Shown: positions 52,284-52,540, counted from the first letter of the stretch. The stretch is DNA of 64,000 nucleotides from an uncultured Eubacteriales bacterium (GCA_964624145.1 CAZUXT010000002.1:22020-86019); one strand, 5' to 3'. Notes: generated by a model not told the origin, from the sequence alone. A program made the numbers and translations.

Positions 52284-52540
52284 CATTTTTTTACCATTAA
52301 GGCAAGCCGATATGAAATTCAGATATGGCTTGTGCTCCCTTCAGATTTTTAACGCCATTCTTCGTACTGTGTTATCGGCTGCTGCGCAACTCCCCCCGTC
52401 CGTGGGTCAGACATGCTCACAGCTCGGCTTTGCCGAGTTCCCTCAAACAAAGCACTCAGAAGGCTAAATCTTCAATGTCGCTTCAGCCACACCTGAATTT
52501 CAGTTAGCTTTCTTCAATCTCGACTCGTTCATCATCAAGG
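52284..52540. ncRNA. Candidate structured RNA / repeat element, copy 1 (family not recognised)
   Basis: About three quarters identical, by eye, to 56392-56645 in the same orientation. The core 52314-52501 pairs into a rod. Compensatory substitutions occur between copies in three helices, and indels break all reading frames. Strand unresolved. Confidence 0.55.

Follow-up and report, generated by a model that had tools for sequence, protein, structure and literature searches.

The window analysed here, the whole 64,000-nucleotide stretch of DNA, contains two copies of a noncoding repeat in the same orientation. Copy 1 lies between a Glt_symporter (gltS-like) gene on the minus strand (50779–52128) and a SpoU/RlmB-type methylase gene on the plus strand (52606–53331), and copy 2 lies between an ORF of 479 amino acids (54940–56379) and a DUF6600 gene (56731–57846), both on the plus strand. 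Copy 1 has the same sense as the gltS-like gene and lies approximately 185 nt upstream of it, whereas copy 2, on the minus strand, faces the 3′ end of a convergent gene. The interval between the copies (53393–54460) carries a gene pair for an ECF sigma factor and a zf-HC2 anti-sigma factor and then a YbjQ-family gene, all of them ordinary and none resembling cassette cargo. A preliminary description of this DNA had reported a two-copy repeat of about 255 nt, at 52284–52540 and 56392–56645. The similarity is real: MAFFT aligned the pair from end to end, the repeat finder gave identities of 92% in the left block and 78% in the right block, and the 27-mer AACTCCCCCCGTCCGTGGGTCAGACAT, taken from the centre of the element, occurred exactly twice in the window, with zero occurrences expected from shuffles. 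However, the repeated core is 190 nt long, the remainder consisting of an outer stem and one transposon end, and the count of two holds inside the window, with more than 250 copies beyond it.

Copy 1 is a complete composite miniature transposon of 386 bp (52159–52545); the same unit was present at at least 18 other loci with 75–90% identity, and the similarity stopped at these coordinates. From left to right, the unit consists of a left end, an AT-rich hairpin module, a 10-bp outer stem, the core, and a right end. The left terminal inverted repeat, CCTGACCTATTCATAA (52159–52174, plus strand), is conserved at the start of the paralogous units, and in 8 of the 16 loci listed, TTAA immediately precedes it; the left flank of copy 1 has decayed. 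The hairpin module (52174–52292) is closed by the exact inverted 14-mers AAAAAAATGGCGAT (52174–52187) and ATCGCCATTTTTTT (52279–52292) and contains an inner hairpin followed by a T-run. With its inner stem TGACAAC.../...GTTGTCA and the T-run, this window hairpin of approximately 120 nt looks like a terminator in both directions. The arms of the outer stem, GGCAAGCCGA (52301–52310) and TCGACTCGTT (52520–52529), paired with each other in the folds of both copies and were present in the long-form copies. They flank the structured core of copy 1 (52313–52502, folding on the minus strand; nhmmer E = 1.8e-62), which is supported by alignments A2 and A3 and by the covariation counts. The right terminal inverted repeat, TCGTTCATCATCAAGG (52525–52540, plus strand; reverse complement CCTTGATGATGAACGA), corresponds in the alignment to ...GTGAATAATCCAGG of the paralogous copies, in which TTAA comes next. 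Copy 2 (56392–56645) is a truncated unit composed of outer stem, core, and right end. Its similarity to copy 1 begins at 56392, so that it lacks the left end and the rest of the leftmost ~125 bp, and its right end, GTTCATCATACAGG (56632–56645), is followed by TTAA at 56646–56649. The core of copy 2 occupies 56420–56608 and also folds on the minus strand (nhmmer E = 2e-60).

Only one strand of the core adopts the fold, which comprises a long terminal helix, a rod, and a three-way junction bearing two hairpins. All of the helices listed in the preliminary description were recovered in the folds of both copies, namely the terminal helix (52313–52330 with 52485–52502 in copy 1), AGATTT/AAATCT plus GCC/GGC, a long-range helix (approximately 52370–52378 with 52441–52449 in copy 1), and the hairpin CTCGGC-TTT-GCCGAG on the plus strand (52421–52439). 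The compensatory differences that it had noted between the two copies (GGCT/AGCC versus GGAC/GTCC, the hairpin, and TGTT/AACA versus TTTTC/GAAAA) were all genuine, and the same positions also covaried across 150 copies. For the covariation counts, the 61-pair RNAalifold consensus was applied to these 150 distinct copies (alignment A3). Standard pairs were formed in 94.5% of cells, compared with 87.0% after shuffling, and none of 500 shuffles reached the observed value; when the partners were slid by 1–3 columns, only 39–52% of cells were paired. Double-sided changes were found in 32 of the 61 pairs, with 674 cells compared with 80–155 in the slid controls. In the terminal helix, all 17 pairs change on both sides in some copies, and the sequences are unrelated between subfamilies although always complementary (UGAAAUUCAGGUGUGGCU, AAAUCUGAGGGUAUGGAU, GCGGCGUUCGGGUCCGGC, AGGUUUUGGGAAAUAGC, and AAAUAUUCGGGGAUGA). 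The base of the long branched arm runs through UA, GC, CG, and AU across the copies, and the hairpin at 52421–52439 shows covariation in 4 of its 6 pairs and pairing in 99.1% of cells. The junction and loop blocks AAGAUUUAGCCUUC, GAGGG, and GAAUGGCGUUAAAAAUCU were near-invariant, partly by construction, because two such blocks served as search patterns. Thus, the covariation reported from two copies was not lost in the larger alignment but became much stronger. No reading frame was open throughout the family, and the best was open in 61 of 146 copies; the earlier interpretation as a conserved single-strand fold, and not coding sequence, is supported.

The pairing was also strand specific. Read on the minus strand of the window, G·U pairs occupied 672 cells and A·C mismatches 125 cells, and the minus strand was the more stable in all 56 copies of alignment A2 (mean −73.2 versus −56.4 kcal/mol). 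For the window copies, the minus-strand folds had energies of −91.2 and −92.2 kcal/mol (z = −5.1 and −5.0), compared with −60.2 and −68.5 kcal/mol (z = −1.5 and −3.9) for the plus-strand folds. In the middle of the rod, RNAalifold predicted a local hairpin and a small 3′ helix from 56 copies and a nested rod from 150 copies; the pair counts above refer to the nested rod alone, columns 46–66 and 128–146 of the alignment being ambiguous between the local hairpin and the long-range helix. The long-range helix compensates between subfamilies (GUGCUGUGUU/AACACAGUGC, CGCUAUUU/AAAGAGCG, and GCUCUUUU/AAAAGAGU). Singleton changes at otherwise conserved columns, a small sample of 62 events, comprised 26 that broke a pair, 16 that kept one, and 20 at unpaired positions, which corresponds to 42 changes over 122 paired columns (0.34 each) and 20 over 67 unpaired columns (0.30 each). 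In searches against Rfam, the element matched no family at the gathering score, including 6S, HEARO, IS605-orfB, riboswitches, and ribozymes, and only weak chance matches appeared at E values up to 10; across the window and 13 related loci, only tRNAs reached the gathering score.

More than 250 copies of the element were collected from at least 15 Aminicenantes/Acidobacteriota MAGs and from many metagenomes. Scanning species-representative genomes with the central 23-mer yielded at least 95 stretches, with at least 14 loci in one MAG, and among the matches listed, the records were MAGs labelled Aminicenantes or Acidobacteriota, or "uncultured bacterium" or "uncultured Eubacteriales". An independent two-block pattern, built on conserved blocks other than the 23-mer, matched at least 119 metagenome stretches and no viral contigs, so that a link with phages was not seen. 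The nhmmer search gave 253 matches in 217 loci and the window, approximately 164 of them full length, and the unit common to all copies was 183–191 nt, equivalent to 52313–52502 and 56420–56608 of the window. Among 80 distinct metagenome copies not chosen by the 23-mer, 23 contained it exactly, 27 contained it with one mismatch, and approximately 26 constituted a subfamily in which the tip of the 23-mer hairpin is 7–8 nt shorter. Most of the 8-kb loci contained a single copy. Many of the 23-mer matches fell within 100 bases of a contig end; short-read assemblies of the genomes concerned are interrupted by the repeat, in which many MAG contigs terminate. Three Logan contigs with an identical methylase gene (L096–L098) start inside the element (window 52475–52483). 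Several MAGs named "uncultured Eubacteriales bacterium" share the repeat and some of its flanks with Candidatus Aminicenantes MAGs, and the Eubacteriales labels on those MAGs are probably wrong.

In terms of gene context, 57 of 58 copies were intergenic, and their orientation relative to the neighbouring genes was unbiased (convergent, 18; divergent, 9; co-directional, 8 sense and 8 antisense). A stop codon directly adjoins several copies and is in some cases supplied by the terminal TGA of the element. The neighbours were unrelated housekeeping genes or members of paralogous families: when ORFs were clustered (≥100 amino acids in 98 loci and ≥120 amino acids in 217 loci) and the ten largest clusters were compared with Pfam, these encoded ABC-F, TPR, outer-membrane, BNR, sulfatase, sigma-54 activator, amidohydrolase, ExbD, and peptidase proteins. 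Within approximately 1.5 Mb of flanking DNA, no transposase, reverse transcriptase, nuclease, or TnpB-like gene recurred near the copies, and no full-length parent with the same ends and a transposase was found. No convincing minus-strand promoter or terminator of the core was detected, and no conserved one lay at a fixed distance. The core interior matched its own flanks over no longer stretches than it matched the flanks of other copies, and no guide-like segment emerged. A literature search for MITEs and structured or noncoding RNAs of Aminicenantes returned nothing relevant.

The core was found inside at least two transposon frames and also occurred in solo and composite forms. In the first frame, the 386-bp unit begins with CCTGACCTATTCAT and ends with GTGAATAATCCAGG, giving CCTG...CAGG inverted ends. 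TTAA was present on both flanks in L108, L138, L139, and L106, and most other units had TTAA or TAA on at least one side; in L106, two units stand in tandem and share one TTAA between them. Both window copies belong to this CCTG...CAGG/TTAA type, copy 1 as a 386-bp unit and copy 2 as a fossil truncated on the left; the flanks of the window copies themselves show no target duplication. The second frame, which characterizes a divergent subfamily, has 23-bp inverted ends, GKAAGCATCTCCAWWTCCGTGAT (GKAAGCATCTCC..., GKAAGC...), a length of approximately 234–272 bp (mostly 253–260 bp), and 9-bp direct repeats such as GTCCCCGAT, ACCTTAAAA, and TTGTATAA (L148, L105, L195, and other loci); 45 of the 56 occurrences of the 23-bp end were no more than 60 nt from a core. 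Insertion polymorphism between related populations was also evident: syntenic metagenome contigs provided a filled site (L192) and an empty site (L128) that differed by a clean 273-nt indel, a second, reciprocal indel left an outer palindrome behind, and further filled and empty pairs were found. The preliminary description had treated the element as present in two copies and as placeable in no IS end or REP class, a framing that fails: the family has many dispersed copies and, in two of its frames, target-site duplications, the combination that the description had itself named as evidence against its reading.

Further arrangements combined the core with other palindromic modules. In a composite frame found at at least 20 loci, a second palindromic module of 147 nt, GACTTTCATCAGGCAAGCTGGTTCTTCAGCCCGCTG...CCTGCCTGAAAGTC, lies upstream of the core, approximately 50 nt before it and in a constant relative orientation (L149:8596–8741, L092:1592–1737, L134:1958–2103, and approximately 20 others, none of them in the window), and at its far side the composite terminates in the last ~25 bases of the core, present as an inverted copy. 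This module folds better on the strand opposite to that of the core (−72.4 versus −54.3 kcal/mol) and had no match in Rfam. Many copies of the main subfamily are solo, their flanks diverging exactly at the 18-bp terminal helix, and the longest direct repeat between their two flanks was no better than in mismatched controls. At one orthologous site, a module had been replaced within the same outer frame, which holds the core in L139 (875–1063) and an 85-nt palindrome, CAGCAGATGCGAGGCGCAGGGTAT...ATACCCTGCAACAAAGCAGATGCTG, in L079; the halves of this palindrome also flank many solo cores. The motif CTATTCATAAAAAAATGGCGAT is dispersed independently, at 80 sites in 62 loci, of which 32 are more than 200 nt from any core. 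Similarly, the last 25–31 bases of the core (plus strand, TGAAATTCAGRTATGGCTTGTGCTCCCTTCA) also occur alone or at the head of different sequences, like a shared end module (L044:707–750, L004:1251–1290, L151 at approximately 1640–1700, and upstream of the second module in L033, L134, and L050). Truncated copies lacked either end without bias, and a retro-element was rejected for want of a 5′ bias among them. Flank complementarity was not above the control in a comparison for insertion into hairpin loops, a control that was contaminated by repeated flanks, and a bias for ...CTTA beside the 5′ end is partly explained by adjacent repeat modules. Overall, the family consists of palindromic modules assembled as a mosaic around one constant component, the 190-nt core.

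We consider it likely that the repeat represents a large, lineage-specific Aminicenantes family of MITE-like, non-autonomous elements built around the structured core. Its copies are numerous, dispersed, and almost always intergenic, and its fold has been kept on the minus strand by compensatory change and G·U wobble. The inverted ends and the duplications of 4 or 9 bp imply a cut-and-paste mechanism, in which the copies would be moved in trans by DDE-type transposases encoded elsewhere; we infer the mobilization in trans, since the flanks surveyed contained no autonomous partner. A transposon model alone does not explain the conserved core, because cut-and-paste transposons normally leave their interior unconstrained. 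The fold may act as an RNA transcribed from the minus strand, which is favoured because double-stranded cut-and-paste needs no strand-specific internal fold. Because single copies break pairs at about the rate at which loops change, selection on the fold would operate mainly in lineages that are still multiplying, and inserted copies would decay. As a best guess, such an RNA would serve the element itself, by processing, terminating, or insulating read-through transcripts or by supplying an RNA for its own spread, and a role at each host locus is less likely; the unbiased orientation relative to the neighbouring genes argues against any role that needs read-through. There is also a slender chance that the core is an RNA cofactor, or scaffold, for a transposase, recombinase, or nuclease encoded elsewhere, much as HEARO proved to be for IscB, which would explain why the fold is kept despite unrelated terminal helices and different frames and why the interior is conserved.

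The fold could instead be needed as single-stranded DNA, with a HUH/Y1 enzyme of the IS200/IS605 or RAYT type moving the copies and with the TTAA and 9-bp frames being unrelated transposons that host a landed core. Solo copies without a detectable duplication would be expected from such a mechanism, as would a strand-specific fold, in which the wobble pairs can form as G·T. The extragenic location, often abutting stop codons, the mosaic and nested association with other palindromic modules, and the use of the same frame for the core or for a different palindrome point in the same direction, and we take this extragenic, mosaic, palindromic arrangement to resemble REP/BIME and REPIN biology. For the solo copies, movement as single-stranded DNA, in the manner of REPIN or IS200/IS605 elements, is a serious rival. 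As an account of the whole family, it appears unlikely, however, because a multi-branched domain of 190 nt with near-invariant junctions greatly exceeds, in both size and complexity, the known REP/REPIN hairpins or IS200/IS605 ends, because the recurrent neighbour clusters of the copies included no Y1 transposase or RAYT, and because no conserved target tetranucleotide could be clearly separated from the element. The tandem G·A pairs that alternate with Watson–Crick pairs suit RNA and DNA alike. Covarying helices with near-invariant junctions are the usual signature of functional structured RNAs, and the retention of the fold across very different flanking frames would also agree with a multi-copy host gene family, encoding a trans-acting small RNA or the RNA of an RNA–protein particle, to which the frames are incidental neighbours. 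Yet the tens of copies per genome, the insertion polymorphism between close relatives, the unbiased orientation, the missing promoter or terminator at a fixed distance, the truncation from either end, and the loss of pairs in single copies at approximately the loop rate make this quite unlikely.

The two remaining explanations concern the locus itself and the reality of the fold. From the position of copy 1 alone, in sense and shortly upstream of the gltS-like gene, a cis-regulatory, riboswitch-like leader of the adjacent gene might be proposed (gltS, on the minus strand, for copy 1), but this is scarcely credible given that copy 2 faces the end of a convergent gene and that more than 250 copies lie beside unrelated genes in all four orientation classes; the distribution of the copies excludes cis-regulation of either gltS or the methylase gene. 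It is also highly improbable that there is no selected fold and that the covariation stems from shared ancestry combined with palindrome correction by template switching. Related sequences may surpass shuffles without any structure, and template switching can create paired changes in palindromic DNA. Nevertheless, the slid controls keep the relatedness of the sequences and still drop far below the observed pairing and the observed double-sided changes, a process that generates perfect palindromes could not produce the 5-fold excess of G·U over A·C, and short hairpins and blocks of three pairs covary across independent subfamilies.

The MITE-like reading can be placed among known systems. Dispersed copies in unrelated flanks, terminal inverted repeats, and presence/absence polymorphism, all of which are expected of MITEs, were found here. 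Compared by their general descriptions, and not by sequence, the Correia/NEMIS elements of Neisseria, ERIC of enterobacteria, and BOX and RUP of pneumococcus share with the present family a length of 100–400 bp, a noncoding and high-copy nature, terminal inverted repeats, an extragenic location, a modular or mosaic organization, folding as long hairpins, the lack of a transposase of their own, and target duplication, which is seen here in at least two frames (TTAA and 9 bp) but not above control level in the solo copies. In contrast to these elements, the core of the present family is a multi-helix domain with a three-way junction, near-invariant junction bases, strong covariation, and clear strand asymmetry, not a mere long imperfect palindrome, and one and the same core occurs in frames with different ends and duplication lengths. 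The data thus fit a new MITE-like family. As a MITE-like repeat it is ordinary; what sets it apart is how large, conserved, and strand specific its core is and that this core is present in different transposon frames. REP, BIME, and REPIN sequences (RAYT, Y1) are likewise extragenic, often placed just after stop codons, and composed of mosaic palindromic modules; they share solo copies without duplication, a hairpin kept by paired changes, and confinement to one lineage. However, REP units are 20–40 nt long and REPINs are simple hairpins of approximately 70–110 nt, whereas the core here is branched and 183–191 nt long, and RAYT elements lack inverted ends and duplications, both of which are present in some of the frames described here.

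HEARO/omega RNAs (IscB, TnpB) and IS110 bridge RNAs resemble the core in being structured RNA-like domains of 150–300 nt on mobile DNA, with many copies per genome, many of which lack a protein gene. Unlike those systems, no IscB, TnpB, or IS110 gene lay beside the copies (none among the ten largest neighbour clusters). A further difference from guide RNAs is that the variable parts of the core are all paired together, the 5′ end with the 3′ end, and no single-stranded guide matching the flanks was found. Integron attC sites were also considered and rejected: the termini (TGAAATTC...GAATTTCA or others) lack the GTTRRRY core, most of the 8-kb loci do not hold the several copies of a cassette array, and the intervening genes are housekeeping genes. 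With respect to the ends of the 386-bp unit, the left end of ISEcp1, a member of the IS1380 family, is CCTAGATTCTACGT, and the duplications that ISEcp1 makes are short and AT-rich (PMC6061673). The outer ends of the unit, CCTGGATTATTCAC or CCTGACCTATTCAT, agree with that left end at 10 of 14 bases and lie in AT-rich TTAA flanks, although the duplications of ISEcp1 are 5 bp long rather than the 4-bp TTAA observed here. This resemblance over a short sequence offers only a lead towards IS1380-type ends on the unit.

The ends are usually regarded as all that a miniature transposon requires, and it is therefore puzzling that the interior is the most conserved part of these elements; either a functional RNA is encoded in them or they need a folded single strand in order to spread. 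HEARO, a multi-copy structured RNA on mobile DNA, later proved to be part of RNA-guided systems, and given this precedent, it would be worthwhile to build a covariance model of the family and to look specifically for a protein that partners it. Across Aminicenantes genomes, recognizing the repeat guards against mistaking it for a regulatory RNA or for the leader of a particular gene.

Other features of the window were noted alongside the repeat. The region at 40137–42390 is a purine-rich (AAG/GAA/AAA) low-complexity sequence with 19 loosely similar 48-nt copies in register and is probably a coding region rich in lysine and glutamate. A direct repeat of 46 nt with 85% identity (AAAGG.TC.TTT...GGCTCCTTT.TTGTTTGTATGAAAAACGGA), at 60801–60846 and 62368–62413, 1.6 kb apart, may be another small intergenic repeat. 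The sole match in the window at the Rfam gathering score is a tRNA gene on the plus strand at 38408–38479.
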